Positions 1,904 through 15,221 of a DNA stretch of 15,221 bases are shown piece after piece (the stretch's first letter is position 1; each line of letters starts with the position of its first letter). Source of the DNA: Candidatus Firestoneibacteriota bacterium (GTDB taxonomy: Bacteria > Oederibacteriota > D2-FULL-39-29 > JBBTED01). The notes beneath the pieces are model-generated. The model saw only the letters and a list, made by a program, of their open reading frames with translations, was not told the DNA's origin and did no database searches. Made by a program: the position numbers and the translations under genes. The stretch spans positions 1 through 15,221 of the forward strand of contig JBBTED010000149.1 of NCBI GenBank assembly GCA_038042445.1. Reading direction: 5' to 3'.

Positions 1904-2351
1904 CGGATTTTTTGTATTCTTTGATTATTTTATCAGCTTTGCTTGTAGTCATTTTAGCAAAATATTGATCATCTGTTGTTACAAGTGGAGCAAGTGCACA
2001 GGCACCAAGACAATTTACAGTTTCTAAAGTCACATTTAAATCATCAGTTGTTTCACCCGATTTTATATTTAACTCATCTTCAAATTTATCAAGTATCTTT
2101 TGGGAGCCACGAACATGGCACGCAGTTCCAATGCATACACATATATGATGTTTACCACGAGGCTTTAAACTAAATGCTTTATAGAAAGTTGCTACACTGA
2201 AAATTTGGCTTAAAGGTATATCTAATTTAACAGATATTTCTTTTAAAATATCCGCAGGTAAATAATTGTATTTAGCACTAACATCCTGCAGTATAGGAAT
2301 TAAAAAACTTTTATCTTTATTGTATTTTTCTAAAATTTCATCAATTGACAT
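1890..2351 (-). CDS. nuoE: NuoE/HydC-like [2Fe-2S] subunit
   Basis: 153 aa. Motifs VATFY, VCIGTACHVRG and NCLGACALAP give the four [2Fe-2S] Cys. Overlaps both neighbouring genes. Confidence 0.92.
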   Translation of the reverse strand: MSIDEILEKYNKDKSFLIPILQDVSAKYNYLPADILKEISVKLDIPLSQIFSVATFYKAFSLKPRGKHHICVCIGTACHVRGSQKILDKFEDELNIKSGETTDDLNVTLETVNCLGACALAPLVTTDDQYFAKMTTSKADKIIKEYKKSDEKN

Positions 2352-2853
2352 AATCTACAAGGAATTTATTTGCAGCAGTTTTTCTAATATCAGCTGATTC
2401 TTCTGCTGGGGTTTTAAATTTTAATGCTTTAGTTGGACAAATTTCAACACATGCAGGTAACTTTCCTGTTTTTACTCTTTCAAAACATAAGTCACATTTA
2501 GTTATGGCTTTTTCTTCCCTGTTCATTTTTATAACACCAAATGGACAAGCAATTATACAATATTTGCATCCAATACATTTTTCGGTATGAATTAATACAG
2601 GTGTATCAGAAGATGGACGTTCAAGAGCTTTTGAAGGGCATACTTTGACACAAGGTGCATCTTCGCACTGCCTGCATTGCATTGGAATAGGCAAGCCAGA
2701 AGCATTTTCTATAATAATTCTTGTTTGGGAAAGCTTTTCTTCAAATATTGCAGTTTCTAAATTTTTTGTTTCTGAATGTTCTACAGCACAAGCAAGTTCA
2801 CAACTTTTACAACCTGTGCATTTTTTTACATCTACCCATATATGTTTAATCAT
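2341..2853 (-). CDS. cooF: CooF-like 4x[4Fe-4S] electron-transfer subunit
   Basis: 170 aa with 16 Cys in the DmsB/CooF pattern (CTGCKSCELAC, CRQCEDAPCVKVC, CIGCKYCIIAC, CDLC...CVEIC). Directly downstream of cooS, with a GGAG RBS in the 13-bp gap. Confidence 0.88.
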   Translation of the reverse strand: MIKHIWVDVKKCTGCKSCELACAVEHSETKNLETAIFEEKLSQTRIIIENASGLPIPMQCRQCEDAPCVKVCPSKALERPSSDTPVLIHTEKCIGCKYCIIACPFGVIKMNREEKAITKCDLCFERVKTGKLPACVEICPTKALKFKTPAEESADIRKTAANKFLVDYVN

Positions 2854-2866
2854 AGATATCTCCGAT

Positions 2867-4786
2867 TTATTTTTTTGGTGGATACATCATTGGGTTAAGT
2901 TTAAGCGCAGCGCGTTTTTTGTCTAAATGTTCTATTATTATATGAGCAGCTTTTATTGGATCTTCTTCAAATGCCCATTTGCCGCCTGTAATACTTTCAA
3001 CATCTTCAGTTACAAATTTTGTAACATTTTTACTGCCTAATGTGAAAAATGGTGAGCCAAATACAACTAGAAGCCCTGATGCAACTGCATACCATCCAAT
3101 AGCTATTGCTTTTTCAGACATCCATTCTAATGCTACGCCAGCAACAGGAAGTTCATCCAAACTATTGCCTATGCCGCCTTCTTCAACCATTTTACAACAT
3201 TCTATTAAGATACGGCTGTTGTCTACACAGGAACCTGTATGCAATATTGGAGGAATACCTACTGCTTCACATACTTCTCTTAATCCGTCTCCTACAAATT
3301 TTTCATAAATAGCTTCTGGTTTTAATAATCCTTCTTTTGCACAGTCTATTGCTACGCATCCTGTTTCTACAAATAACACGTCATACTTAAGCAATTCTTT
3401 TATCATTTCAATATGTGATGTTCCACTTTTGAATTTTGGATTGTCGCATCCAACTGCTCCTACAACACCACGTAGTCTTCCTGATATTATAGCATCATTT
3501 AGAGGTCTGTAAGATCCTCTGAAACTACCGCCTAAATGATAATTAATATTTTCTGTTGTAAATCCGGCTATAAAATCTACTTTTTCGTTTGGTATTTTTA
3601 CTTTTTCTTGCTTTCTGTTTATGAAATTTTCAACGCCTATTTTTACTATTTTTTTTGCAATATCTAACCCTTCTTTTTCATCAAATTCAATATATTCAGT
3701 GCCTGGAAAATTTGCTCTTGCACTTGTAGATACTATTTTTGTATGAAAATGCGATGCAACTTGTGGAAGCGAAGGCATGATACACTGTAAATCAACTATC
3801 ATTAATTCAACAGCTCCAGTTGTAAGTGCAACTTCTTGTTGTAAAAAATTTCCTGCAACAGGAATTCCACGTCTCATAAGTATTTCATTTGCAGTGCAGC
3901 AGATTCCTGCAACATTTATTCCTTTTGCGCCTTTTTCTTTTGCAAGGGCAAGTAATTCTGGTGTTTGCGCTGCGTCTACTATTAATTCGGATAAAAGTGG
4001 GACATGTCCATGGACTAATATATTTACCTCATCAGTTTTAAGTACACCCAAATTAACTTGTGCTTTTCTTGGTTGAGGAGAGCCAAATAATATATCGCAT
4101 AATTCAGTTGAAAACATAGAGCCGCCCCAGCCATCACTTAGAGCTGTTCTCATTCCACCAAAGAAAATATGTTTGTAATCTGTGTCAACGCCTATATTTG
4201 TTCGTGCCATCATTTCAACAATTTCTCTATCTATACCTCTGGGTGTTAAATTATATTTGTCCCAGATTTCCTGTTGTTTTTTAGGGGCACGTTTTAAAAA
4301 TGTCAATTTGCCATTTTGCTGGCCATATTCTGCTAACATTTTTTCAGCAAGTTCTTTTGCTATATCGTTATCATTTTTATTATCAGTTTTTATATTAAAT
4401 TCAGTTGCAATAGTTCGAAGTTTAACAGGATCCTTTATTGAGTATCCTTTTGTTTCACCACGTGCGGTTAGAAGCAATGTATTTGTAATTTCTCTGCCGT
4501 GGTCATTATGACATGCTGAACCTGCTGCTATATGTCTGGCAATGTTTCTCGCACTTATAGTGTCTGCATCAGCACCGCATACACCATATTGTGCGCCTTC
4601 TTTAAATGGGTCTATTCTGCATGGACCCATATTACAATTTTTGCAACACAAACCAAGTGTTCCAAATCCACAATGTGGTTCTTGTAGTTTATATCGGTCC
4701 CATACAGTAGTAATGTTTTCACATTCTGCAATATCCCGCATTTGTAAAGTTGCTTTATCCCCGAATTTTTCTCCAGCTTTTCCCAT
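2867..4786 (-). CDS. cooS: Anaerobic Ni-containing carbon monoxide dehydrogenase catalytic subunit
   Basis: 639 aa. D/B cluster motif CGFGTLGLCCKNCNMGPC...GVCG; catalytic His pair in ACHNDHGRE. All C-cluster ligand motifs present (HGH, GICCT, LQC, VGCDN, TGC, GSCVD), plus the EWMSEKA lysine. Confidence 0.96.
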   Translation of the reverse strand: MGKAGEKFGDKATLQMRDIAECENITTVWDRYKLQEPHCGFGTLGLCCKNCNMGPCRIDPFKEGAQYGVCGADADTISARNIARHIAAGSACHNDHGREITNTLLLTARGETKGYSIKDPVKLRTIATEFNIKTDNKNDNDIAKELAEKMLAEYGQQNGKLTFLKRAPKKQQEIWDKYNLTPRGIDREIVEMMARTNIGVDTDYKHIFFGGMRTALSDGWGGSMFSTELCDILFGSPQPRKAQVNLGVLKTDEVNILVHGHVPLLSELIVDAAQTPELLALAKEKGAKGINVAGICCTANEILMRRGIPVAGNFLQQEVALTTGAVELMIVDLQCIMPSLPQVASHFHTKIVSTSARANFPGTEYIEFDEKEGLDIAKKIVKIGVENFINRKQEKVKIPNEKVDFIAGFTTENINYHLGGSFRGSYRPLNDAIISGRLRGVVGAVGCDNPKFKSGTSHIEMIKELLKYDVLFVETGCVAIDCAKEGLLKPEAIYEKFVGDGLREVCEAVGIPPILHTGSCVDNSRILIECCKMVEEGGIGNSLDELPVAGVALEWMSEKAIAIGWYAVASGLLVVFGSPFFTLGSKNVTKFVTEDVESITGGKWAFEEDPIKAAHIIIEHLDKKRAALKLNPMMYPPKK

Positions 4787-4940: not shown

Positions 4941-5016
4941 TGGTGAGTCGTACAGGGATCGAACCTGTGACACCCTGATTAAGAGTCAGGTGCTCTACCA
5001 ACTGAGCTAACGACCC
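4941..5016 (-). tRNA. tRNA-Lys (anticodon CTT)
   Basis: Reverse complement: GGGTCGTTAGCTCAGTTGGTAGAGCACCTGACTCTTAATCAGGGTGTCACAGGTTCGATCCCTGTACGACTCACCA. 76 nt with D arm, anticodon stem CCTGA/TCAGG around CTT, GTTCGA T loop and encoded CCA. Confidence 0.97.
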
Positions 5017-5564
5017 ACTTTATTTAACAATTGCTTAATTTTTTCTATAATTTTATCTGTTTCAGTAAGTCTGCCTTTTCCTATAGTGCCACAAGCAAGT
5101 TTTCCTGTGTCAGGTCCTACAAAAAAATATCCTGATTTTTCAAGTTTTTTTATGTTGCTTTGCACAATTGGATTTTCATACATATTCACATTCATTGCAG
5201 GTGCGAATAGCACAGGTGATTTGCAGGACATTATTACTGTTGATAGTAAATCATCTGCTATTCCATTTGCAATTTTGCCTATTATATTTGCACTTGCAGG
5301 AACTACAACAATTAAATCAGATTTATCTGCAAGTGAAATATGTTCTATTTTCCAATCGACTTTTTCTTCAAACATATTAACATAAACTTTGTTTTGTGAC
5401 AATGTTTGAAATGTCAAAGGTGTTACAAATTTAGCTGCATTTTCTGTCATTACAACATTTACATTTGCATTTTCAGATTTTAAACTGCTTACCAGATAAA
5501 CAGCTTTATATGCAGCAATTGAGCCAGTAATACCCACTAATATATTTTTGTCTTTTAAATCCAT
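5007..5564 (-). CDS. coaC: Phosphopantothenoylcysteine decarboxylase (HFCD flavoprotein), CoaC domain only
   Basis: 185 aa. Motifs GITGSIAAYK, EHISLA, PASANIIGKIANGIADDL, PAMNVNM and GKLACG..GKGRL. The protein ends where the CoaB domain begins in fused CoaBC. Confidence 0.88.
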   Translation of the reverse strand: MDLKDKNILVGITGSIAAYKAVYLVSSLKSENANVNVVMTENAAKFVTPLTFQTLSQNKVYVNMFEEKVDWKIEHISLADKSDLIVVVPASANIIGKIANGIADDLLSTVIMSCKSPVLFAPAMNVNMYENPIVQSNIKKLEKSGYFFVGPDTGKLACGTIGKGRLTETDKIIEKIKQLLNKVGR

Positions 5565-5567
5565 TTA

Positions 5568-6746
5568 TTATCTTTTTTTATATAAAGGCGATATTGCTCT
5601 TAATCGCGTGATTACTTTTTTTAAAATGTCAGCCACTTTGTTTATGTTATCTTCAGTTGTTTGTCTGCCTAATGTTAGGCGTAATGAACTGCGTGCATCT
5701 TCAGGCGCAACTCCAATAGAAGTTAAGACATGTGATGCTTCTAATGAACCGGAGCTACATGCAGAACCTGTTGAAGCAGCGATTCCTTCCATATCAAGAT
5801 TTAATACCATAGATTCGCCTTCTATATGTTTTATAGTAACATTTATATGTCCTGGAAGCTTTGCAGTTGGATGTCCATTTAATTTTGTTTGTTCAATTTC
5901 AGTTAGAATTCTATTGGTTAATTTATCCCTAAGACAAGTTAGATTTTCTCGTTTTTGTACGAGTTCACTAATTGCTATTTCTACTGCTTTTCCAAATCCT
6001 ACAATATATGGAACATTTTCTGTGCCTGCACGTCTTCGTCTTTCTTGTTCTCCGCCGTGTAAGAATGATACCATTTTTGTGCCTTTGCGGATATATATTG
6101 CGCCAATTCCTTTAGGCCCATATAATTTATGTGCAGAAAAGGATAACATATCAACATTTAATTCGTCAACATTTACTGGAATACTGCCTAATGTTTGCAC
6201 AGCATCACTGTGAAAAGTGATATTATGTTTACGTGCGATTTTTCCAATTTCAGCAATTGGTTCTATAGTGCCGATTTCATTATTAGCGTGCATAATTGAT
6301 ATTAAAATAGTTTTATCAGTAATTGCTTTTTGGACATCTTCAGGATTGACTGTACCATATTCATCAACAGGCAGATATGTAATTGTGAAACCGTTTTTCT
6401 CAAGGAAATGGCATGTTTCCAGGACAGCATGATGTTCTATCTTTGATGTAATGATATGTCCACCTTTGTTTTTGTCAAAATATGCAACTCCTTTTATGGC
6501 AAAATTGTCTGCTTCTGTTCCGCCACTTGTAAAAACTATTTCTTCAGGTTTAGCAAAAATAGCATTCGCAAGTTTTTCCCTTGCTTCTTCCATTGCGGAT
6601 TTTGCTTCTCTGCCGAATGAATGCACTGTAGAAGGGTTACCAAAATTTTCAGTAAAAAATGGTAGCATTGCTTGGACTACATCTGGGTGAACAGGTGTAG
6701 TTGCCGCACAATCCATATAAATTCTTTTTTTAGTAATGTTATTCAT
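5568..6746 (-). CDS. iscS: Cysteine desulfurase (IscS/NifS, group I)
   Basis: 392 aa. Motifs IYMDCAATT, FGNPST, FTSGGTEADN, IEHHAV, PLP lysine in SAHKLYGPKGIG, and catalytic Cys in STGSACSS. Confidence 0.94.
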   Translation of the reverse strand: MNNITKKRIYMDCAATTPVHPDVVQAMLPFFTENFGNPSTVHSFGREAKSAMEEAREKLANAIFAKPEEIVFTSGGTEADNFAIKGVAYFDKNKGGHIITSKIEHHAVLETCHFLEKNGFTITYLPVDEYGTVNPEDVQKAITDKTILISIMHANNEIGTIEPIAEIGKIARKHNITFHSDAVQTLGSIPVNVDELNVDMLSFSAHKLYGPKGIGAIYIRKGTKMVSFLHGGEQERRRRAGTENVPYIVGFGKAVEIAISELVQKRENLTCLRDKLTNRILTEIEQTKLNGHPTAKLPGHINVTIKHIEGESMVLNLDMEGIAASTGSACSSGSLEASHVLTSIGVAPEDARSSLRLTLGRQTTEDNINKVADILKKVITRLRAISPLYKKR

Positions 6747-6778
6747 AATTTTTTGTCTATAGTCTGATTTATATTTAT

Positions 6779-6807
6779 AGTATAATAGTTCATTCTATTT
6801 ACGTCAA
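6779..6807 (-). promoter_or_regulatory. Sigma70-type promoter for iscS-coaC-tRNA
   Basis: Minus strand TTGACG (6807-6802), 17-nt spacer, TATACT (6784-6779), about 30 nt upstream of the iscS start. Confidence 0.7.
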
Positions 6808-6837
6808 TAATTTTTTATATGAATGATAAGAAAAATC

Positions 6838-6866
6838 TTGCCAAAATAAGTTTTAATATGTAAAAT
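6838..6866 (+). promoter_or_regulatory. Sigma70-type promoter for the plus-strand block
   Basis: TTGCCA (6838-6843), 17-nt spacer, TAAAAT (6861-6866), ending 11 nt before the ATG at 6878. Confidence 0.55.
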
Positions 6867-6877
6867 AATAATCAGAA

Positions 6878-7585
6878 ATGAAAATTCATACAACTACAAC
6901 AATTTTAGTTATTTTATCATTAGTGATTATAACAGGCTGTTCTAAAAATAAAGATATAACACAAGTTTTAGGAACGCAAGTTTCTACGCCAGGCATTATT
7001 TCTGGTGAAATCACAGACAAAGATTCCAAGCCAATTTTTGGTGTAACTATTTGGACAGAACCATTTACATCTGGAGTTTCAAGTAAAACAACAGGTAAAT
7101 TCAAAATATCAGATGTTTCACCGGGAATCTATACAATTAAAACATATAAAGCAGAATATGCGGACAAAAGTGAATCCGTTACAGTTACTTCAGGTGCAGA
7201 ATCAACTGTGAATATAAAACTTTCACCACCTAAAGATACTACAGCTCCGAGTGCAATAACTACATTGATAGCTTCATCGCCTACTACAACTTCTGCAACT
7301 CTTAGTTGGACAGCTACAGGAGATGATGGGCTTGTTGGAACTGCTGGGCAATATGATATTAGATATTCTACTGCTACTATAACAGAGTCTAACTGGAGTT
7401 TGGCAACTCAGGTTACAGGTGAACCAACACCTGCAGTTTCCGGAACTTCTCAATCTTTGACTATTACAGGGCTTACATCTTCTATGACATATTATTTTGC
7501 AATGAAAGCAGCAGATGAAGTTCCTAATTGGTCTGTATTATCTAACGTAGTCACTAAAGTTAAAACTTTTTCGCCAGTACAATAG
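6878..7585 (+). CDS. Lipoprotein with a carboxypeptidase-regulatory-like beta-sandwich and a fibronectin type III domain
   Basis: Hydrophobic signal with lipobox IITGC. ISGEITD...GKFKISDVSPGIYTI domain, then FN3-like DTTAPSAIT...LSWTATGDDG...YDIRYS...ITGL...YYFA. Confidence 0.75.
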   Translation: MKIHTTTTILVILSLVIITGCSKNKDITQVLGTQVSTPGIISGEITDKDSKPIFGVTIWTEPFTSGVSSKTTGKFKISDVSPGIYTIKTYKAEYADKSESVTVTSGAESTVNIKLSPPKDTTAPSAITTLIASSPTTTSATLSWTATGDDGLVGTAGQYDIRYSTATITESNWSLATQVTGEPTPAVSGTSQSLTITGLTSSMTYYFAMKAADEVPNWSVLSNVVTKVKTFSPVQ

Positions 7586-7591
7586 TATGAG

Positions 7592-7684
7592 TGTCATAAT
7601 TGTAGCCGCAGGCTTTAGCCTGCGAGAGAACGCAAGCTAAAGCTTGCGGCTACATAAAAAAGCACAAAAAATAGAATTATGACA
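7592..7684. repeat. GTAG-type REP doublet (7601-7654) enclosed by a 10-bp inverted repeat; possible degenerate MITE
   Basis: TGTAGCCGCAGGC-TTTA-GCCTGCG and an inverted copy TGTAGCCGCAAGC-TTTA-GCTTGCG. Flanked by TGTCATAATT (7592-7601) and AATTATGACA (7675-7684). Confidence 0.8.
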
Positions 7685-7728
7685 TAGTCTAAATGAATGG
7701 TATGCAGTGAATAGTTAAAAAATTATAT

Positions 7729-8310
7729 ATGAGAAAAATAAATACTGTAGTGTTAATGCTTGTATTGCTTGTTGCCATATCTACTATTAGTTATGCAGAA
7801 AGCTTAACTCCATTTCAAAATTCTTGTGCTGTTTGTGGAATACTTGGATATTCGCTTCCATTATCACCATCTGGAGCGAATAGTTATAGCGAGAGTTATT
7901 TACCTGGTTATTTATTCGGCGGCGGTATAAAATATTCACTCAGCAATAATTTTTCACTTGCTTTGTTTTACGAAAATACATCTACACCACATAGAACTCA
8001 ATCTTCTGCTTATGTATCATTTAACCCTATTTATTTAGAAACAGAAATTTCTGTTGCAAACACAAATACAGAAAGATTTTTTATTATAGCAGGTGCAGGA
8101 TATTCTAAAAATAAAGTTGAGGGTTCTACTTCGCCTCAGGAATGGAATGGTGTTAACTTTATCGGAGGCGGGGGTTTTGAATATATGCTTAATAAAAAAT
8201 TTAGTTTAGAGTTTAATATAAAAGGTTTTGGATTTTTACCAGCTAACAAAGGGGATGATATCTTAGGTTTTTCGTCATTTACCTGTGTTATAAATTATTA
8301 TCTGATATGA
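7729..8310 (+). CDS. Small outer-membrane beta-barrel protein (OmpA-transmembrane/OmpW-like)
   Basis: 193 aa. Sec signal ending SYA-E, amphipathic Gly/aromatic strands (FGGGIKY, IAGAGYS, IGGGGFEY), aromatic C-terminal strand. Confidence 0.65.
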   Translation: MRKINTVVLMLVLLVAISTISYAESLTPFQNSCAVCGILGYSLPLSPSGANSYSESYLPGYLFGGGIKYSLSNNFSLALFYENTSTPHRTQSSAYVSFNPIYLETEISVANTNTERFFIIAGAGYSKNKVEGSTSPQEWNGVNFIGGGGFEYMLNKKFSLEFNIKGFGFLPANKGDDILGFSSFTCVINYYLI

Positions 8311-9857
8311 AAAAAATATTTTTGAAGTCTGGATTTATTTTAATCATTATATTTTTACAAAACATAGTGTTGTGTAATATTGCGTTGTGTGCAGAAGAAA
8401 GTGAAGAAAAATTAGTAAGTCCTACAGAATATAATTTCAAAACGTATTTTCACTCCAGAATTTCTTATAACATGATATCTAATACTACAGATTTATCCAG
8501 TGATAGTGATGATAATGCAGGATATTTATCCTATTTGTATGATATAGGTTTTTATCTTAAATATGCAGGTTCAACGGAATTTTTTTTGAAAATGGTACGT
8601 GCTACACGTTCAAATTATGATGCTCCTGTAAGTGGTAGTAAAATAGTAGTATGGCCTGGTTCTGAATTTGATAAATATACAAGCACTGAATCAATTTTGC
8701 CAAGAATTACAGAATACTGGCTTGATGTTCCTATTTTGGAATCTTCAATGAACACCAGATTTAAGGCAGGATTGTTTTCTAATATTCTTGGAAATGGATT
8801 TGTTGGCGGTAAATATGAAAACTATGGATTTTCGTTCTATAATACTTCTGGAAAAATTAAATATAACTTTCATACAGAAATAGCAGATTATAACAATAAA
8901 ATACTTTTAGGCCCTCATATTGAACAGGAGAAATTTTTTACATATAATGATACAAATGCGTATTTGGTATCTGCTGATTTTAGAATCAATATGGGCCATT
9001 TTAATTTTGAGCCGTATGTGAGTCTGCTTCGCGATACTACACAAAATAGTTCAAGAGAGAGTCTTATTGCTACTCCTACAGATGAAGATATACTTGGCAC
9101 AGCAGGTATGATGGGACTAATAAATTTTGATGAATTAACAGTAGATTTTGAATATGCAAAAAACTTTGGTAAAGCAATAAGTGCAAGCAAAAGTTATCCT
9201 GATGTTGCCCATAAAGGGTATCTTGTTTATGGCAATGTTTCTTATTCAATTTATGATATGTTAATACCAAAAGTAGGAATAATTATGGCTAGTGGAAACA
9301 AGATAACAGATGCTGATTTGGATGCTTTAAAATTAACTGGTGATACAAATAATGCGTTTTCTGTTTTTTCTCCATCAAATACAAATTTATTTGATACACA
9401 GTATCCAAAGAAAAGCGGTCCATTTATTGCTACAGGAAGCGGACATGCTATAAATTATGGAATTCCAAGACCGGGAACTTTTTCAAATGCAAATTTGCTT
9501 GAGAATTTAGACGCTAAATATATTGGGCTTTCAGCTGTGCCAATAAGTTATTTATATTTTTCTCTTGATTACTGGTTCTTGAAATCTATGGAAACTTATC
9601 CCGGAACAAATAGTTTGTCTAATGGAAGCAAAACAGAGTTTTCAAATAATTTGGGCTCAGAATTAGATTTATTTGGAAGTATACAAATTAGAAGCAATAT
9701 ATCATTTAATATTATATATGCATATTGGACACCCGGGGATTATTATAAAGAGCTCAGGAATCAATATTCCGGAACAGGGTTTACTCCTTTAGTTAGAGCT
9801 GATGGAATAGCAGATGGTATATCACAATTTGAAATAGGAGTAGAGTTTTTATTTTAA
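8307..9857 (+). CDS. Large outer-membrane beta-barrel protein, possibly alginate-export (AlgE)-like
   Basis: 516 aa. Signal peptide, many aromatic beta-strands, LGSELDL and YAYWTPGDYY segments resembling the AlgE-family C-terminus, and a C-terminal beta-signal EIGVEFLF. ATGA overlap with the upstream gene. Confidence 0.6.
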   Translation: MKKIFLKSGFILIIIFLQNIVLCNIALCAEESEEKLVSPTEYNFKTYFHSRISYNMISNTTDLSSDSDDNAGYLSYLYDIGFYLKYAGSTEFFLKMVRATRSNYDAPVSGSKIVVWPGSEFDKYTSTESILPRITEYWLDVPILESSMNTRFKAGLFSNILGNGFVGGKYENYGFSFYNTSGKIKYNFHTEIADYNNKILLGPHIEQEKFFTYNDTNAYLVSADFRINMGHFNFEPYVSLLRDTTQNSSRESLIATPTDEDILGTAGMMGLINFDELTVDFEYAKNFGKAISASKSYPDVAHKGYLVYGNVSYSIYDMLIPKVGIIMASGNKITDADLDALKLTGDTNNAFSVFSPSNTNLFDTQYPKKSGPFIATGSGHAINYGIPRPGTFSNANLLENLDAKYIGLSAVPISYLYFSLDYWFLKSMETYPGTNSLSNGSKTEFSNNLGSELDLFGSIQIRSNISFNIIYAYWTPGDYYKELRNQYSGTGFTPLVRADGIADGISQFEIGVEFLF

Positions 9858-9861
9858 ACAA

Positions 9862-10950
9862 ATGGATAAATTATTAACACATAAGAGATGTAGGCATATT
9901 GGATGTTATTCTATAATAATATTATTGTCTTATGTTTTGCTTTCAGGCTGTGCATCACGATTTGGAAATTTTAGAGGAGATAAAAAATTTGTACAAAATA
10001 AATATCAACTTGCTATAGCAGAATATAAAAGTGTGCTTAAAAAAGACCCGGACAATAAACAAGCACTTTCAATGCTTGCATGGAGTTATTTTAAAATGGG
10101 CGAGTATGAAGATGCTTTAGATGCTTTTGTAATATATCAGCAGTTATATCCAAAAGAAACAGAAGCATTAAATGGGTTAGGATGGAGTTATTTTAAAACA
10201 GGCAAATATGAGAAAGCAAAGCAGGATTTTAATAAGTCAATTAAAATAAATAAAAAGCAATCAGATCCGTATAATGGTCTTGGCTGGGTTTATCTTTCAG
10301 ATAAAGAAGAAATAGCCGCATTTAATAAATTTCAGGAAGCTTTAAAATATGATATAGAGAGCCCTGAAGCACACAGAGGTCTGGGCTACTATTATTTTTT
10401 CAAAGAGAATTATGATAATTCAATTATTGAGATGCGAAGGGTATTAAGAATTCAACCTGATTGGTTGGACTGTTTGGTTTTGATAGGGAAAAATTATCTT
10501 GCAAAAAAAGAATATGATGAAGCTGCAAAATGGTTTGAATGTTATTTAAAAGAAAAACCTGATGATTTAGATATAGTACTTCAGTTTTCTCAAATGGAAT
10601 TCTACAAGAAAGATTATGCAAGTGTTGTAAAATATTTATCATACCTGAAAATTAAAAAAATAGATAACCAAAAGGAATGGAGTTCTTATAGTTCTGCTTT
10701 ATCAATGCTTGGTTGGAGTTATTTCTACCAAGAGAATTATAAGGAATCTTTAAATGTATTTGGTTTATTAAAAAATTTACATAGTGAAAGTGATTATTAT
10801 GCTGATGTCCATGATGCTTTAGGATGGAATTACTTAAAACTGAAAAATTTAGATGAAGCATTTGCAGAATTTCAGATTGCATTGAAATTAGCACCAGAGT
10901 ATGCAAGTTCATTAGTGGGACTGGATGAACTCAAAAAGCTCAAAGAATAA
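9862..10950 (+). CDS. TPR-repeat lipoprotein
   Basis: 362 aa. Lipobox LLSGC and repeated ~34-aa TPR units (ALSMLAWSYF, ALNGLGWSYF, PYNGLGWVY, AHRGLGYYY, VHDALGWNY). Confidence 0.85.
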   Translation: MDKLLTHKRCRHIGCYSIIILLSYVLLSGCASRFGNFRGDKKFVQNKYQLAIAEYKSVLKKDPDNKQALSMLAWSYFKMGEYEDALDAFVIYQQLYPKETEALNGLGWSYFKTGKYEKAKQDFNKSIKINKKQSDPYNGLGWVYLSDKEEIAAFNKFQEALKYDIESPEAHRGLGYYYFFKENYDNSIIEMRRVLRIQPDWLDCLVLIGKNYLAKKEYDEAAKWFECYLKEKPDDLDIVLQFSQMEFYKKDYASVVKYLSYLKIKKIDNQKEWSSYSSALSMLGWSYFYQENYKESLNVFGLLKNLHSESDYYADVHDALGWNYLKLKNLDEAFAEFQIALKLAPEYASSLVGLDELKKLKE

Positions 10951-10957
10951 ACAAGAA

Positions 10958-11042
10958 GTCATTGCGATTCCTGTATCAAATAGTGTAGGGTGTGGCAATC
11001 TCAGTACGAAAATCGGGATTGCTTCACTTCGTTCGCAATGAC
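10958..11042. repeat. Palindromic REP/MITE-like intergenic element (GTCATTGCGA...TCGCAATGAC type)
   Basis: Perfect 10-bp terminal inverted repeat (10958-10967 and 11033-11042) and an internal stem GCAATCTC/GGGATTGC. Confidence 0.8.
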
Positions 11043-11065
11043 GACAAAATTTTGGAGGTGGTTTT

Positions 11066-12112
11066 ATGGTAAAGCAGTTGTTGGGTTGTGTGTTAGTATT
11101 ATTGTTGTTTGTTGCAGTTTGTCCATCTTTTGCAGGTGTGCCTCAGGTGGATCAGGCATGGGGTTACTACTATGCTGCAGATTATGCCAATGCAATAGTA
11201 AAGTTTAAAGAGGCATTAGACAGCAAAAAAGTTTCAAGCAAGGAAGTTTGGGCTGTTCATTCAGGTCTTGCATGGTCATACTACTGGAAAGGAGAAACAG
11301 ATAAAGCAAAAGAAGAATTTAATTTTGTTTTAAAAGATGCTTCTGATAATGCAGATGCGTTAAAAGGTATGGGTTTTTGTAATTTTGCTAAAAAGGATTA
11401 TGATAATGCAATAAAATCTCTTAAAAAATCTCTTGAGAAAGCTCCCGGTGATTATTATGCACAGGCAAATTTAGCATGGAGTTTTTGCTATAAAAAGGAT
11501 TATGATAATGCAAAAAAAGAATTTGGAAAAACAATTGATATATCAGCTTATTATGCTGAGAGTGCAGAATTTTTAAAAATATTAGATGAAAGAAAAGATT
11601 TCAATAGTTTGTATCTACAAGCAGGATGGATTTACTATGTATGGAAAGATTATGATGGTGCATTTAGAATATTCAATACCGCTATCACAAAAAATAAAGA
11701 TGACTGGGAAGCTTTGATGGGTATTGGATACACATATTATCAATACAAATTATATGATAAATCCATAAGCAATTTAGAAGCATCTTTAAAACTTAATAAA
11801 GAGTCTAAAAAAATCAAAGAAACTATTTTTGTTCCTGGAATATATGGAGAATTTTTAATTGAAAGTGATGCGACATCAACACTTGCATGGTGTTATTATA
11901 ACAAAGGAAATTATGATGTAGCAATTGAACTTTTCAAAAAGACGATTGCAAAGCATTCAGATTGGGTTGATGCGCATGATGGTTTGGCATGGTGTTACTA
12001 TGTGAAAAAAGATTTAAAATCTGCAGAAGGAGAATTTAACAAAGCGCTTAAACTTAATAAAAACTATGGAAGTTCTTTGCAAGGTTTAGCTGCAGTGAAG
12101 TCAGGAAAATAA
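11066..12112 (+). CDS. Exported TPR-repeat protein
   Basis: 348 aa. GGAGGT RBS at 11054-11059, signal peptide ending SFA-G, TPR units (VHSGLAWSYY, AQANLAWSF, ALMGIGYTYY, AHDGLAWCYY). Confidence 0.87.
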   Translation: MVKQLLGCVLVLLLFVAVCPSFAGVPQVDQAWGYYYAADYANAIVKFKEALDSKKVSSKEVWAVHSGLAWSYYWKGETDKAKEEFNFVLKDASDNADALKGMGFCNFAKKDYDNAIKSLKKSLEKAPGDYYAQANLAWSFCYKKDYDNAKKEFGKTIDISAYYAESAEFLKILDERKDFNSLYLQAGWIYYVWKDYDGAFRIFNTAITKNKDDWEALMGIGYTYYQYKLYDKSISNLEASLKLNKESKKIKETIFVPGIYGEFLIESDATSTLAWCYYNKGNYDVAIELFKKTIAKHSDWVDAHDGLAWCYYVKKDLKSAEGEFNKALKLNKNYGSSLQGLAAVKSGK

Positions 12113-12360
12113 TGACTGTAAAAATCCCTGAGGAGTTAAATCCTACAAAAAAGGGGTTTTTATTTGATCCTTATACTGGCCATACTTATACGTTGAATGC
12201 TACTGCTGCTTTTGTATTTAAAAAATTGCAGGAGGGCAAAAATATATCAGATATTACTAAAGTATTGGCTGATGAGTATAAGCTTGACGAGAAAAAAGTC
12301 TTAGAGGATATAAAAGATTTTGTAATGAACATAAAAGATTTTAACCTAACAAAAAAATAA
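12112..12360 (+). CDS. Stand-alone PqqD-family protein / RiPP recognition element (RRE)
   Basis: 82 aa with the PqqD pattern: GFLFDPYTGHTYTLNATAAFVF strands followed by helices I...LADEY.LD...VLEDIKDFV. TAATG overlap with the upstream TPR gene. Confidence 0.85.
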   Translation: MTVKIPEELNPTKKGFLFDPYTGHTYTLNATAAFVFKKLQEGKNISDITKVLADEYKLDEKKVLEDIKDFVMNIKDFNLTKK

Positions 12361-12368
12361 TTTCTTGT

Positions 12369-12414
12369 ACTCTCCTTATATTACCCCTCTTTGCTAAAGA
12401 GGGGTAAGGGGAGT
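12369..12414. repeat. Strong intergenic hairpin (REP-like or RNA-stability element)
   Basis: Perfect 12-bp stem TTACCCCTCTTT-GCT-AAAGAGGGGTAA (12381-12407), extendable by ACTCTCC/GGGGAGT. No U tract, so not a typical intrinsic terminator. Confidence 0.65.
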
Positions 12415-12438
12415 TGTATAAATCTTCCTTTAATAAAA

Positions 12439-13506
12439 ATGATAAAATATACTGTAGGTGTAACCGGGTTAAATGCTACAGACAATCCTGCTCCTGGTGT
12501 TCCTGTTATAAGGAGTATAAAGGATAGCCCTCTTTGGAAAGGTAAAATAGTTGGATTGGCTTATGACGCATTAGATACAGGTATATACAATAATGATTTA
12601 TTAGATGAAGTTTATCTTATTCCTTATCCAAGCGAGGGCGAAGAAAATTTACTTGCAAGATTAAAATATATCAAAGGTAAAACTGGGATTAATGTTATAA
12701 TTCCAACACTTGATTCTGAACTATCCAATTTTGCGCGTCTTGAACCTGAATTAAAAAAAATAAATGTCCACTTGCTTATTCCTTCTGAAAAAAAACTTAA
12801 ACTAAGAGCAAAAACCACTTTATATGAATTTTGCAGGAAAAATGGGTTTGATGTGCCTTATACAACTATTGTGCAGGAACCTGCAGAAATCGCAAAAAAA
12901 ATGTCCGATTTTAAATTTCCTGTTGCAATTAAAGGGGTGTTTTACGAGTCTTATACTGCTTGGACAATTGATGAAGCTATAGTATATTTTTGTAAAATAA
13001 AAGAGCGATGGGGTCTACCAATAATACTTCAGGAATATATAAAGGGTGAAGAATACGATGTTGTTGCACTTTGTGACAAGAAAAGTAAAGTTAAGGGTGC
13101 TGTTGCAATGCGGAAATTAAGAATCACAGATAAAGGTAAAGCATGGGCTGGAATAACAATAATGGATGAAAAGTTGCTTGACTTATCCAAAAATATACTT
13201 GAGAAATTAAAATGGACAGGACCACTTGAAATGGAATTTGTAAAAGATTCTTTGTCAAACAAATATTATCTGTTAGAGATAAATCCAAGATTTCCATCCT
13301 GGGTATATTTGGCTACAAGAGCTGGACAGAATTTACCTTTGGCTACTTTACTTCTTGCTTTAGATAAAGATACACTGCCTTTTGAAAAAGTTAAACCAGG
13401 TCTTACTTTTGTAAGACATGCAATTGATATGGTTTGTCCTATAGAATATTTAGAAGAATTAACTACAAAAGGAGAATTACTCTATAATACAAACCATAAA
13501 AAATAA
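12439..13506 (+). CDS. ATP-grasp carboxylate-amine ligase (CarB/biotin-carboxylase-like fold)
   Basis: ATP-grasp motifs FPVAIKG, ILQEYIKGEEY, LEMEF and YLLEINPRF. ATG 12439 (355 aa) is preferred because the TTG at 12391 lies inside the hairpin. Confidence 0.85.
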   Translation: MIKYTVGVTGLNATDNPAPGVPVIRSIKDSPLWKGKIVGLAYDALDTGIYNNDLLDEVYLIPYPSEGEENLLARLKYIKGKTGINVIIPTLDSELSNFARLEPELKKINVHLLIPSEKKLKLRAKTTLYEFCRKNGFDVPYTTIVQEPAEIAKKMSDFKFPVAIKGVFYESYTAWTIDEAIVYFCKIKERWGLPIILQEYIKGEEYDVVALCDKKSKVKGAVAMRKLRITDKGKAWAGITIMDEKLLDLSKNILEKLKWTGPLEMEFVKDSLSNKYYLLEINPRFPSWVYLATRAGQNLPLATLLLALDKDTLPFEKVKPGLTFVRHAIDMVCPIEYLEELTTKGELLYNTNHKK

Positions 13507-13536
13507 GATGCAGGTTTTATGTAGGGCAAGGCTTTA

Positions 13537-13656
13537 GAGCTTGTGCCAAAACCCTATTTTGTCATCCTGAACGAAGTGAAGGATCTCGTTTTTAAAAGAC
13601 TTTAAAGCGAGATTCTTCGGCTGTTGCCTCAGAATGACACCTTTTGGCACAGGCTC
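13537..13656. mobile_element. 120-bp MITE-like element with 15-bp TIRs and a TTTA target-site duplication
   Basis: Left TIR GAGCTTGTGCCAAAA (13537-13551) and right TIR TTTTGGCACAGGCTC (13642-13656) match at 14/15 positions. TTTA occurs at both 13533-13536 and 13657-13660. Confidence 0.8.
13560..13639. repeat. REP-like palindromic element nested in the MITE
   Basis: Termini TGTCATCCTGA...TCAGAATGACA and an inner stem GAAGGATCTCG/CGAGATTCTTC. The termini are related to the elements at 17-43 and 15164-15221. Confidence 0.75.
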
Positions 13657-13730
13657 TTTAGCCTTGCAATTGCAGTTAGCTTGTAGTAGTTAATCTTGAA
13701 TTGCAAAGTGGAGGTGTAAACAAATTAAAT

Positions 13731-15113
13731 ATGCGTGAAAAAAATAGTGTTAAAAATGTTTTTCCAGCAAAATATGAGAAGCCAACTATTGTTCGACATT
13801 CCGTAGGTCTTATGAATAAATTCGGCAGAATTCCCAATTCTGTTTCTTTTGGAAAAATTGATGGGGTTTCTATTACTGAACTTATGAATAATTTTGGTTC
13901 TCCGCTTTATGTTGTTTCTGAAGGTGCTTTAAGAAGAAAATATAAAGAAATGTATAGAGCATTTAGCTTAAGGTATCCAAAAGTTGTAATATCTTATTCA
14001 TACAAGACAAATTATTTATCAGGTGTATGCGCAATTTTGCATACAGAAGGTGCGTATGCTGAAGTTGTATCAGGTTTTGAATATGATATAGCAATGAGTT
14101 TATCTGTGCCTGGCAATAAAATTATATTTAATGGTCCGTATAAAACAAAAGCAGAACTAAAAAGAGCTATTGAAGGGACAAGCAAAATAAATATAGATTC
14201 TTATGAAGAGATGCAACTTATTGAAGAAATTGCTGAAGAATTGGGTAAAAAAGTAAAAATAGGTGTTAGAATAAATATGGAATTAAATTATCCTCCATGG
14301 GATAGATTTGGGTTCAATTTAGAATCAGGGCAGGCGTTTGAAGCAGTAAAAAGAGTTATGGCATCATCTCATTTGGAAGTATGTGGGCTTCACATACATG
14401 CAGGCACATATATCAGTGATGTAAATACATACTCAAAACTTGCTGAAAAACTTGTTTCATTTTGTGCAAAATTACAGAGTGAGTTAAATGTAAAATTGGA
14501 ATATTTGGATATTGGTGGAGGATATGCGTCAAAAAACACTTTGCATAATCAATGGATGTCTGCAGAATGGACCTGCCCGAGTTTTGACCAGTATGCTGAG
14601 GCAATATGCCCTATAATTTTAAAAGGTCCATTTAAGCCACAAAATATGCCAACACTAATTCTTGAACCAGGACGTTCAATAGTTGATGAAGCAATGTTTC
14701 TGCTTACATCAGTTGTTTCTGTAAAGAGATTGTCTAATGGTAGCAAAGGAGTTGTTATTGATGCAGGAGTAAATTTAATTCCTACGGCATGGTGGTATAG
14801 ACATGATATTCTTCCAATAAAAGAATGGTCCGGGATTACAGAAGATGTTGCAATTTTGGGACCTCTATGTATGCAAATAGATGTAATACGGCAAAATGTA
14901 TCGTTGCCGCCACTTGTTCGAGGCGATATTCTGGTAATAAAAAATGTTGGTGCATACAATTTTTCACAATCAATGCAATTTATTCAGCGAAGACCGCCAG
15001 TTATTTTAATAAATGAAGGAAATGTTGAACAGTTAAAGCAAGCAGAAACAACAGAATATATAAAACAACTTGAAAAAGTTCCAGACAGATTACTAAAATC
15101 TCCATATAAGTAA
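13731..15113 (+). CDS. Group IV (fold III) PLP-dependent decarboxylase, DAP-decarboxylase-like with atypical substrate site and N-terminal extension
   Basis: Motifs GSPLYV, PLP lysine in YSYKTN, FNGPYKT, HIHAGT, LDIGGG, EPGRSIV, GPLC and VGAY. ATG 13731 is preceded by GGAGGTG (13710-13716, long spacing); TTG 13701 is an alternative start. Confidence 0.85.
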   Translation: MREKNSVKNVFPAKYEKPTIVRHSVGLMNKFGRIPNSVSFGKIDGVSITELMNNFGSPLYVVSEGALRRKYKEMYRAFSLRYPKVVISYSYKTNYLSGVCAILHTEGAYAEVVSGFEYDIAMSLSVPGNKIIFNGPYKTKAELKRAIEGTSKINIDSYEEMQLIEEIAEELGKKVKIGVRINMELNYPPWDRFGFNLESGQAFEAVKRVMASSHLEVCGLHIHAGTYISDVNTYSKLAEKLVSFCAKLQSELNVKLEYLDIGGGYASKNTLHNQWMSAEWTCPSFDQYAEAICPIILKGPFKPQNMPTLILEPGRSIVDEAMFLLTSVVSVKRLSNGSKGVVIDAGVNLIPTAWWYRHDILPIKEWSGITEDVAILGPLCMQIDVIRQNVSLPPLVRGDILVIKNVGAYNFSQSMQFIQRRPPVILINEGNVEQLKQAETTEYIKQLEKVPDRLLKSPYK

Positions 15114-15163
15114 TAGCATTATGAAACATTAATGTCAAAGAGTCGGCGTATGCGAAAATGAAA

Positions 15164-15221
15164 TGTCGCCCTGAACTTGTTTCAGGGTCTAATGAGATGC
15201 CGAAACAAGTTCGGCATGACA
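15164..15221. repeat. REP-like doublet at the window end
   Basis: TGTCGCCCTGAACTTGTTTCAGGGTCT-AATG-AGATGCCGAAACAAGTTCGGCATGACA: two inverted hairpins of the same family as 17-43. Confidence 0.82.

Follow-up and report, generated by a model that had tools for sequence, protein, structure and literature searches.

What is a protein of a family that recognizes leader peptides doing beside a ligase and a decarboxylase, when no peptide precursor is to be seen? The question is raised by a window of 15,221 nucleotides, the complete contig JBBTED010000149.1 (here C149) of a Candidatus Firestoneibacteriota bacterium, whose genome of 2.8 Mb lies in 181 contigs and is estimated to be 90% complete. Three open reading frames (ORFs), all on the forward strand (12112–12360, 12391–13506 and 13701–15113), encode a PqqD-family protein, that is, a recognition element (RRE) for peptides made on ribosomes and modified after translation (RiPPs), an ATP-grasp ligase, and a decarboxylase dependent on pyridoxal phosphate (PLP). 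An earlier note, made from the letters alone, took them for a stand-alone module, perhaps an RRE-organized pathway of peptide or protein modification. The three consecutive genes are indeed there, each with its Pfam families over the cut-offs, but they do not stand alone. The trio is the front of a larger cassette, with a urea transporter (UT) domain fused to an M23 peptidase encoded 3' of it and genes for tetratricopeptide repeat (TPR) and outer-membrane proteins 5' of it. I suggest, with somewhat less than even confidence, that in the cytoplasm this conserved cassette builds a small amide-linked amine, which it passes out through the envelope.

The case for a cassette begins with gene order. 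Contigs from one genome per species were scanned with an alignment of ligase relatives (the ligase sequence by itself drew no relatives, and the alignment did), giving at least 599 pattern matches. At least 595 of these one-per-species genome records encode a ligase relative and, with many metagenome contigs besides, they make the cassette a common one. The best 80 loci were kept, and in all 80 the decarboxylase gene lies directly 3' of the ligase gene, so the arrangement is not due to chance. A hidden Markov model (HMM) of PqqD, applied to these 80 and a class-level relative (G011), found a match in 76 of the 81 loci; of the five misses, four have the ligase at the edge of a contig. Where there is room, PqqD is 5' of the ligase in 76 loci of 77. 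The synteny of the three genes, whose absence from other genomes the earlier note would have taken as a refutation, is thus present. Judging from record titles of the best 80 loci, the carriers include Bacteroidota, Ignavibacteriota, Myxococcota, Leptospiraceae, Planctomycetota, Marinimicrobia, and others. The same core order appears in 47 further metagenome loci wherever the contigs allow.

The conserved neighborhood extends in both directions. Wherever at least 1500 bases are available 3' of the decarboxylase, a gene for a UT::M23 protein of about 700 aa is nearly always found (63 of 65 loci), within 400 bases in 61 of them. Clustering of neighbors brought out, along with this gene, TPR proteins with signal peptides, some with and some without a C-terminal barrel-like domain, and in other loci the core is accompanied by separate barrel proteins of about 275 aa. 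The barrel families of other loci, C8 and C5, have no Pfam match. TPR HMM matches occur downstream in 49 of 53 loci that have 5 kb of room, a soft count, as TPR matches are unspecific. Some metagenome loci carry a variant of the cassette, with two tandem ATP-grasp genes and with a SIR2 (sirtuin) domain replacing M23.

The window breaks off in a repeat beyond the decarboxylase gene. The last 55 bases of C149 have only one other copy in the assembly, bases 1–55 of contig C8 (not to be confused with the barrel family of that name), in the same orientation. Because the 55-mer is unique to the two ends, and because other species show the same synteny, the locus most likely continues on contig C8, which opens with a gene (C8:74–1681) for a UT::M23 protein of 535 aa. 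Over the last 90 bases of C149, depth climbs from about 8 to 250–1170. The appearance of a three-gene module is an artefact of the break of the contig within a repeat. The earlier note's statement that no peptidase accompanies the trio holds inside the window and fails with the next gene, on the adjoining contig. A scan of metagenomes turned up no near-identical longer contig, the best match being 67% identical.

The same note held that the spaces between the genes contain only palindromic repeats, and so they do. The spacers at 12361–12438, 13507–13730 and 15114–15221 fold as long hairpins and have many blastn matches in the genome, as multi-copy repeats of the REP (repetitive extragenic palindromic) or MITE (miniature inverted-repeat transposable element) kind do; they are insertions of such repeats, belonging to several families. 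Copies of the second elsewhere in the genome are 96–97% identical. The TTG at 12391 listed as the start of the ATP-grasp ORF falls within the first of these spacers. Relatives begin at the ATG codons at 12439 (ligase) and 13731 (decarboxylase), which are therefore the likely starts within the two longer ORFs.

The decarboxylase exceeds the Pfam cut-offs for PF02784 (132 bits) and PF00278 (51 bits), and its predicted PLP lysine (K92, in YKTN) is invariant in 44 sequences, as are E312, G314 and R315 of the EPGR stretch. Its nearest solved relative is the N-citrylornithine decarboxylase FslC, from rhizoferrin synthesis in Francisella (7kh2, E = 3e-64); LysA of archaea and bacteria comes after it. 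BtrK (2j66, 7ru7) is a more distant relative, at E ~1e-27, so the comparison with BtrJ/BtrK made in the earlier note was an apt one. FslC has in common with the cassette enzyme the active-site stretch GPxCMQxD (CMQID in the window, GPLCMNID in the family consensus), where LysA structures have CESSD or CETGD.

The resemblance to LysA raises the most ordinary of explanations, that the decarboxylase is the organism's own LysA and its neighbors are unrelated to it. It is, after all, the only LysA-like gene found in a genome 90% complete, and its score against the LysA model TIGR01048, about 257 bits, is not far under the cut-off of 297.9 (against the FslC model NF041039 it scores 261.1, with a cut-off of 500). 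Set against this are its FslC-like active-site motif, a gene order kept in 80 of 80 loci across phyla, and a separate, higher-scoring lysA in all five other cassette genomes considered (268–395 bits, four of them over the cut-off), whose cassette decarboxylases score only 212–225 bits against the same model. Neither dapA nor dapF nor a second LysA-like gene was found in the window's genome, at its 90% completeness, and the organism may lack the diaminopimelate route to lysine. The housekeeping explanation is hardly credible, and on these comparisons the cassette decarboxylase is judged not to be housekeeping LysA.

The N-terminus of the enzyme bears more directly on the opening question. Ahead of the LysA-like fold is a tail in which a lysine at residue 14 is followed by YEKPTIVRHSVGLMNKFG (residues 15–32). 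Of 73 cassette decarboxylases, 71 have the motif [YFW]xxPx[ILVM] within their first 60 residues; the remaining two come from GC-rich loci where the ORF calls overrun the start. The motif occurs in none of four readable housekeeping LysA paralogues from cassette-carrying genomes; a fifth, from Sorangium, was read in the wrong frame and was left out. P18, K30 and G32 of the tail are invariant in the 44-sequence alignment, and in the species set the proline, an aromatic residue (Y, F or W) at the head of the motif, and K30 are each found in 66 tails of 66. The full tail motif has a single copy in a six-frame translation of the window's genome. Among metagenome loci, an arginine or glutamine replaces the lysine in five (L098, L113, L114, L117, L119), of which L113 and L114 have partners of the M23 type, and the distant variants L129 and L140 have the YxxPx motif and no tail lysine. 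As far as the sequences go, YxxPx[ILF] is the universal feature of the tail and the lysine is not. A phmmer search of PDB chains with the 45-residue tail found no leader peptide, only one match at the level of chance (E = 1.5). YxxPxL is the conserved leader-peptide motif of lasso precursors, according to PMC10368454 and PMC6784204.

The PqqD protein resembles the receptors of just such leaders. It scores 47.8 bits against PF05402 (cut-off 23.4, E = 1.8e-12), and its predicted structure (pLDDT 79.4), a winged helix, has strands at 16–19 and 24–27 and helices at 30–40, 45–55 and 60–76. The best solved folds given by foldseek are the lasso B1 proteins TbiB1 (5v1u, template modeling (TM) score 0.83; also 5v1v) and TfuB1 (6jx3, TM 0.86; range 0.83–0.87), which were crystallized with their leaders, and TM scores to PqqD proper are lower (0.59–0.69). 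The family profile finds only four matches in PDB, all of them lasso or PqqD-family chaperones, TbiB1 being the best (E = 6e-13). The top NCBIfam model is lasso_PqqD_Strm (E = 4.4e-11), with the lasso_PqqD models under their cut-off (42.8 vs 70). Its likeness is thus greater to the leader receptors of lasso systems (B1) than to PqqD proper, and the identification of the 82-aa product as a PqqD/RRE protein, proposed earlier, is borne out.

A receptor of this type might mean that the cassette makes a true RiPP after all, from a precursor with a YxxPxL leader encoded elsewhere or too variable to be recognized. The ATP-grasp enzyme would then modify the precursor, the M23 domain would cut off the leader, and the channel and porin would export the product. 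An RRE of lasso-B1 type in company with a protease and an ATP-dependent enzyme that forms amides mirrors the logic of lasso peptides, and in Mucilaginibacter loci (L041, L063, L065, L078, L080, L084, L087) the cassette has LytTR-type two-component genes at its flanks, where the 5' neighbors are a LytS-type histidine kinase, a LytTR regulator and an orphan receiver. However, no ORF of 18–110 aa is common to 82 loci other than PqqD itself and antisense artefacts of it, and the gene 5' of PqqD varies from lineage to lineage, so that the want of a credible precursor ORF, remarked upon in the earlier note, extends to the relatives. The note was right as well about the lasso cyclase: neither an Asn-synthetase-like cyclase nor a lasso B2 protease nor a precursor gene was found among the window ORFs or the conserved neighbors scanned. 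The full tail motif in this genome is confined to the decarboxylase; when a looser motif was sought in small ORFs there was one match, by rough estimate about what chance would give. Moreover, the substrate of a PLP decarboxylase with this fold must be a free alpha-amino acid, and a peptide backbone has none to present, nor would a peptide fit through the narrow pore of a urea-type channel. I consider a hidden RiPP improbable. The most economical reading of these sequences is that the RRE more likely docks the tail of the enzyme than delivers a RiPP substrate. From the RRE-organized pathway envisioned earlier, the RRE and the synteny stand, and what changes is the probable partner of the RRE, the YxxPx[IL] tail of the decarboxylase.

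Two further candidates were considered and rejected: the PqqD protein as a carrier like LysW, since it is without a conserved acidic C-terminus, and maturation of the graspetide/microviridin type, since the NCBIfam scan yielded no matching model.

The ligase exceeds the cut-offs of PF15632 (42.6 vs 29.1 bits, E = 6.4e-11) and PF02655 (30.4 vs 23.2 bits). Out of 7999 candidates scored, 5082 are relatives at E ≤ 0.001, and the best 120 of these are 48–84% identical to it. K165, E280, N282 and R284, which include the E-x-N that binds Mg and ATP in this superfamily, are invariant in 40 sequences, and the predicted structure (pLDDT 92.8) matches the folds of ATP-grasp enzymes with E-values from 1e-23 to 1e-15.

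With a ligase and a conserved lysine at hand, the tail might serve not as a docking site but as a carrier. The ligase would build its intermediate on the lysine of NKFG by an amide tether, the decarboxylase would act on it in place, and the M23 domain or sirtuin would cut it off. The lysine is present in 66 of 66 species-set tails, sirtuins, which replace M23 in the variants, are lysine deacylases, and tethered amino acids are what both CtaD/CtaF and BtrJ/BtrK act upon (PMC7183216). The lysine is, however, Arg or Gln in the five metagenome loci named above, including the two of M23 type, and several cassettes of the sirtuin type have lysine-free tails (L129, L140). I rank the carrier below simple docking because YxxPx[ILF] is universal and the tail lysine is not, and I would give the carrier only a small chance of being right.

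Docking, if it occurs, may take place near a membrane. The UT::M23 protein scores 184.6 bits against PF03253, over profile positions 2–290 of 292, and 55.6 bits against PF01551 (Peptidase_M23, cut-off 28.7). Its UT domain aligns over its full length to residues 10–310 of dvUT and to both halves of human UT-A, and matches solved transporters with E-values from 2e-32 to 7.6e-42. The signature of urea transporters is LPxxTxPF, with a threonine in both halves. The first-half signature here is LPVLSLAF (LPxLSxPF in relatives), with serine for threonine, and the second is LPVLALPF (LPV[LF]ALPF in the family), mostly with alanine, the threonine being kept in one of 13 aligned sequences. In the M23 domain, every readable row of a 13-row alignment (12 rows, as L030 is masked) has the motifs THK...DF, NWGNxxIxxH and GNSGxSxxPH[IL]H intact. 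The protein of the window's genome keeps the HxH (PHIH) and the central His (IDH), and its first motif, HxxxD in M23 enzymes, is H-x8-D (THK...WDF).

On which side of the membrane does the peptidase lie? Two UT domains can share one chain, joined by a soluble linker, which places both ends of a UT domain on the same side, and in urea transporters those ends face the cytoplasm. In all eight proteins examined, Lys and Arg abound at the N-terminus and in the 40-residue stretch that follows the last helix. In diverged cassettes, all five UT proteins of 616–643 aa have SIR2 rather than M23 as the C-terminal domain, and in three of three loci tested SIR2 has a gene of its own, next after one that encodes UT alone. 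Since sirtuins need NAD, the fused domain is most likely cytoplasmic, and the M23 domain, to judge from all these features, most likely faces the cytoplasm as well. That M23 and a sirtuin can be interchanged points to a task common to them, the cleavage of an amide or N-acyl bond.

The placement bears upon the possibility that the cassette edits peptidoglycan precursors or the envelope, with a ligase akin to Ddl or pseudomurein ligases, a LysA-like enzyme acting on the free D-center of diaminopimelate in the stem peptide, and M23 in its customary role. M23 enzymes normally cut peptidoglycan peptides, and the ligase weakly matches Ddl and archaeal pseudomurein ATP-grasp models (E = 1e-8 to 2.5e-6, far under the cut-offs). 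Yet here M23 is predicted to be cytoplasmic and is replaceable by a sirtuin, the decarboxylase is without the CES motif of LysA, and no Mur or Pbp genes are conserved nearby. Editing of this kind seems very unlikely.

The genes upstream of PqqD supply what may be the outer part of the export route (Table 1). The TPR protein just before PqqD, whose stop codon overlaps the PqqD start (TAATG), matches the cassette-linked TPR family C4 of other loci by hhalign (probability 98.8 over 157 columns), and the TPR lipoprotein before it matches families C4 (98.4) and C11 (97.3); probabilities over all such comparisons of the two proteins with cassette-linked families were 96–99. The gene of the small barrel overlaps that of the porin by 4 bases. 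The porin has 64 relatives at E ≤ 1e-5, and three of three relatives tested pass the PF13372 cut-off of 25.2 bits (28.8–36.8), while the window's own protein scores 12.3 bits (E = 0.073). A relative of the porin is found 5' of TPR and PqqD in the metagenome loci L108, L110 and L116; these three repeat the order from porin relative through TPR, PqqD, ligase(s) and decarboxylase to UT protein. In L130 a porin relative comes after UT::SIR2. Neither of the two barrels of the window, taken as a single sequence, matched the families C8 and C5 from other loci by hhalign (probability about 1 or less). The evidence of sequence suggests that the upstream TPR and outer-membrane genes belong to the cassette. 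The membership of the first gene of the same-strand run, which encodes a lipoprotein with a lipobox-like signal peptide (6878–7585), is uncertain, and no relative of it was found beside the cassette in other loci. The names of the porin relatives (Candidatus Omnitrophota, Margulisiibacteriota) hint at the kinship of the window's genome.

Table 1 Features of the window in and around the front of the cassette. Counts of blastn matches are within the genome and include the feature's own site.
Feature	Position	Strand	Remarks
Predicted lipoprotein, CarboxypepD_reg + fn3	6878–7585	+	PF13620 E = 2.5e-12, PF00041 E = 3.3e-6
Small outer-membrane beta-barrel, 193 aa	7729–8310	+	PF13505 OMP_b-brl 29.2 vs 28.7 bits; signal peptide
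Outer-membrane porin, 516 aa	8307–9857	+	Family scores as AlgE-type "Alginate export" barrels
TPR lipoprotein, predicted periplasmic, 362 aa	9862–10950	+	Pfam TPR families; lipobox
Spacer, multi-copy palindromic repeat	10951–11065		11 blastn matches; hairpin -33.6 kcal/mol
TPR protein with signal peptide, 348 aa	11066–12112	+	Pfam TPR families
PqqD-family RRE, lasso-B1 type, 82 aa	12112–12360	+	PF05402
Spacer, palindromic repeat	12361–12438		Hairpin -28.9 kcal/mol; 8 blastn matches
ATP-grasp ligase, 355 aa	12439–13506	+	PF15632, PF02655; likely start
Spacer, MITE/REP-like palindrome, ~140 bases	13507–13730		Hairpin -89.7 kcal/mol; 59 blastn matches
Fold-III (group IV) PLP decarboxylase, FslC-like, 460 aa	13731–15113	+	PF02784, PF00278; likely start
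Leader-like tail of the decarboxylase, YEKPTIVRHSVGLMNKFG, residues 15–32	13773–13826	+	Predicted PqqD docking site
Terminal repeat and contig end	15114–15221		Hairpin; 51 blastn matches

With TPR proteins and outer-membrane barrels beside the core in most loci, one might suppose that the cassette makes an exopolymer, a polyamide built by iterative action of ligase and decarboxylase and secreted by way of the TPR proteins and the AlgE-like porin. The family of the window's porin does score as Alginate_exp, and some variants have two ATP-grasp genes. There is also a precedent for iteration by an ATP-grasp enzyme and a decarboxylase, the oligo-beta-alanine of CtaD/CtaF (PMC7183216). Against a polymer, the conserved genes of the cassette include none for a glycosyltransferase or for anything like a polymerase, the TPR matches are unspecific, and the sole component in the inner membrane is a urea-type channel. 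Pores of that type are far too narrow for a polymer. I regard an exopolymer as improbable, much as I do the tail as carrier.

There remains the reading favored here, in which a small molecule is made and exported. The PqqD protein would grip the decarboxylase's own YxxPxI tail in the way that lasso B1 proteins grip leaders, and the docked tail would hold the decarboxylase in a complex with the ligase, the channel protein, or both. The ligase would join an amino acid by its side chain to some partner, leaving the alpha-amino acid end free, and the decarboxylase would then remove the alpha-carboxylate. The order, ligation before decarboxylation, is proposed because FslC, BtrK and CtaF act on amino acids already ligated through their side chains or tethered. 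The M23 domain, on the cytoplasmic face of the channel, would cleave an amide bond and release the product, for which the modified urea-type pore would be the way across the inner membrane and the TPR and porin proteins the way across the outer. In its most specific form, the proposal puts the leader on the enzyme: a lasso-type RRE and the decarboxylase tail would assemble a metabolon of ligase and decarboxylase where a re-purposed urea channel opens to the cytoplasm, and there a tethered M23 domain or sirtuin would unmask the small amine during export. In that degree of detail the proposal is possible but rather unlikely.

Several observations weigh against the proposal. One locus, L008, has 7.8 kb of sequence 5' of the ligase without a PqqD gene, and its decarboxylase nonetheless keeps the tail YEKPTI...NKFG; this locus is the closest species-level relative among the best 80, its ligase being 60% identical, and its PqqD gene may lie elsewhere. 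Two other loci, L047 and L050, have room for the UT::M23 gene and do not have it. The join between C149 and contig C8 sits inside a repeat, and the public Logan unitigs (four runs) break there, which neither confirms nor refutes the join. The best fold match to the ligase, 2pn1, is a structural-genomics protein with no function assigned, and the rest are generic ATP-grasp enzymes. The urea-type pore is narrow, and that replacement of the signature threonines widens it is only something that may be. The cytoplasmic placement of M23 is drawn from what is generally held of UT topology, from counts of charges, and from the exchange with sirtuins. Finally, mutual information between the tail and PqqD was discarded as evidence of contact, since the top pairs fell on variable columns that mark lineages and were dominated by kinship, and the calculation had no shuffle control.

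How far is such a cassette from systems already described? In rhizoferrin synthesis, FslA and FslC follow the logic of ligating an amino acid by its side chain and then decarboxylating the free alpha end. FslA, though, is a ligase of the siderophore-synthetase type and here the ligase is ATP-grasp, and FslC has on record no leader-like tail, no PqqD partner, and no channel::peptidase. Butirosin synthesis (BtrI/BtrJ/BtrK) offers an ATP-grasp enzyme and a fold-III PLP decarboxylase acting in turn on a tethered amino acid, as proposed here, and closthioamide synthesis (CtaE/CtaD/CtaF/CtaG) likewise ligates and then decarboxylates on a tethered amino acid, with CtaG, of protease fold, handling the product (PMC7183216). 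Both of these have a phosphopantetheine carrier (BtrI, CtaE), whereas the small protein of the cassette has the PqqD/RRE fold, and no carrier-protein family was found among the window's eight forward-strand proteins or the conserved neighbors scanned. They differ as well in that the amide-cleaving part of the cassette is a zinc peptidase or sirtuin set on a membrane channel.

The other parts have equally clear analogues. Lasso systems have the B1 receptor and YxxPxL leaders; the cassette has its Y-x-x-P-x-I on an enzyme of 460 residues and is without B2, cyclase, and precursor. The UT domain has the full-length fold of urea transporters (dvUT, 3k3f; human UT-A, 8blo; UT-B) but, unlike them, is fused to M23 or a sirtuin and is encoded in a biosynthetic operon rather than beside urease genes. 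Synthase-dependent export of exopolysaccharide by proteins of the AlgK and AlgE type pairs a periplasmic TPR protein with an outer-membrane barrel, as the cassette does, but the cassette has no glycosyltransferase or polymerase, and the window's porin is under the Alginate_exp cut-off. None of the three core proteins reaches a curated NCBIfam cut-off, and a search of the literature in full text, covering papers and main texts open without subscription, found none that joins even PqqD with a urea transporter. The earlier note could not match the trio to a characterized pathway, and the search of the larger cassette ended the same way: it is undescribed and far from any known kind, for all that its parts have analogues in FslC, BtrJ/K, CtaD/F, lasso B1, and urea channels.

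The cassette has local embellishments. The variants with two ATP-grasp genes and SIR2 (L108–L112, L115, L116, L121, L122, L124, L128–L130, L140) have the SIR2 domain fused to UT or encoded by the next gene, and their tails read YEKPxV...GKHAG or are free of lysine. The closest metagenome relatives (L101, L102, L104, L105) have a gene for an FG-GAP repeat protein between PqqD and ligase, bearing the sorting tail of the type IX secretion system (T9SS) in two of the four. Ignavibacteriota loci (L011–L022) have an upstream protein of about 280 aa that also bears a T9SS sorting tail, and in L097 an O-methyltransferase (L097:11413–12555) stands between decarboxylase and UT::M23. In the window's own genome, the UT::M23 gene is followed by ORFs at C8:1906–3075 and C8:3680–5191, one URO-D-like and the other with an N-terminus that is sulfatase-like, by eye only; these differ from the TPR genes found in that position in other lineages.

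The remainder of the window is occupied by genes on the reverse strand. A catalytic subunit of anaerobic CO dehydrogenase (2867–4786, TIGR01702, 635 bits) and its neighbors in 59–4786, which encode ferredoxin-like, NuoE/HoxE-like, and NuoF-like proteins, the last with extra 2Fe-2S and 4Fe-4S domains, likely make up an NAD(P)-linked CO-oxidizing module, judging from the domains present. A stand-alone phosphopantothenoylcysteine decarboxylase of the CoaC type (5007–5564; 185 aa, the N-terminal half of CoaBC) adjoins a NifS-type cysteine desulfurase (5568–6746). Translation of the repeats yields spurious ORFs, such as 10990–11208 and 15001–15219. Scans of 6600–15221 found promoters and terminators at the level of chance (47 vs 42.4 expected and 5 vs 4.2 expected, respectively). 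Public runs labeled groundwater metagenome contain the stretch, and among 12 public runs none of RNA was listed as containing it.

If the proposal is true, the cassette, spread over hundreds of species from many phyla, would represent a new way of making and releasing a small molecule that is reactive or toxic, and a small amine or amide from many bacteria of soil, water and sediment would become findable. To the roles of the urea-transporter fold would be added the export of a biosynthetic product. RiPP recognition elements, for their part, would serve also as adaptors for whole enzymes, a warning to those who mine genomes that an RRE without a precursor gene need not signal a hidden RiPP.

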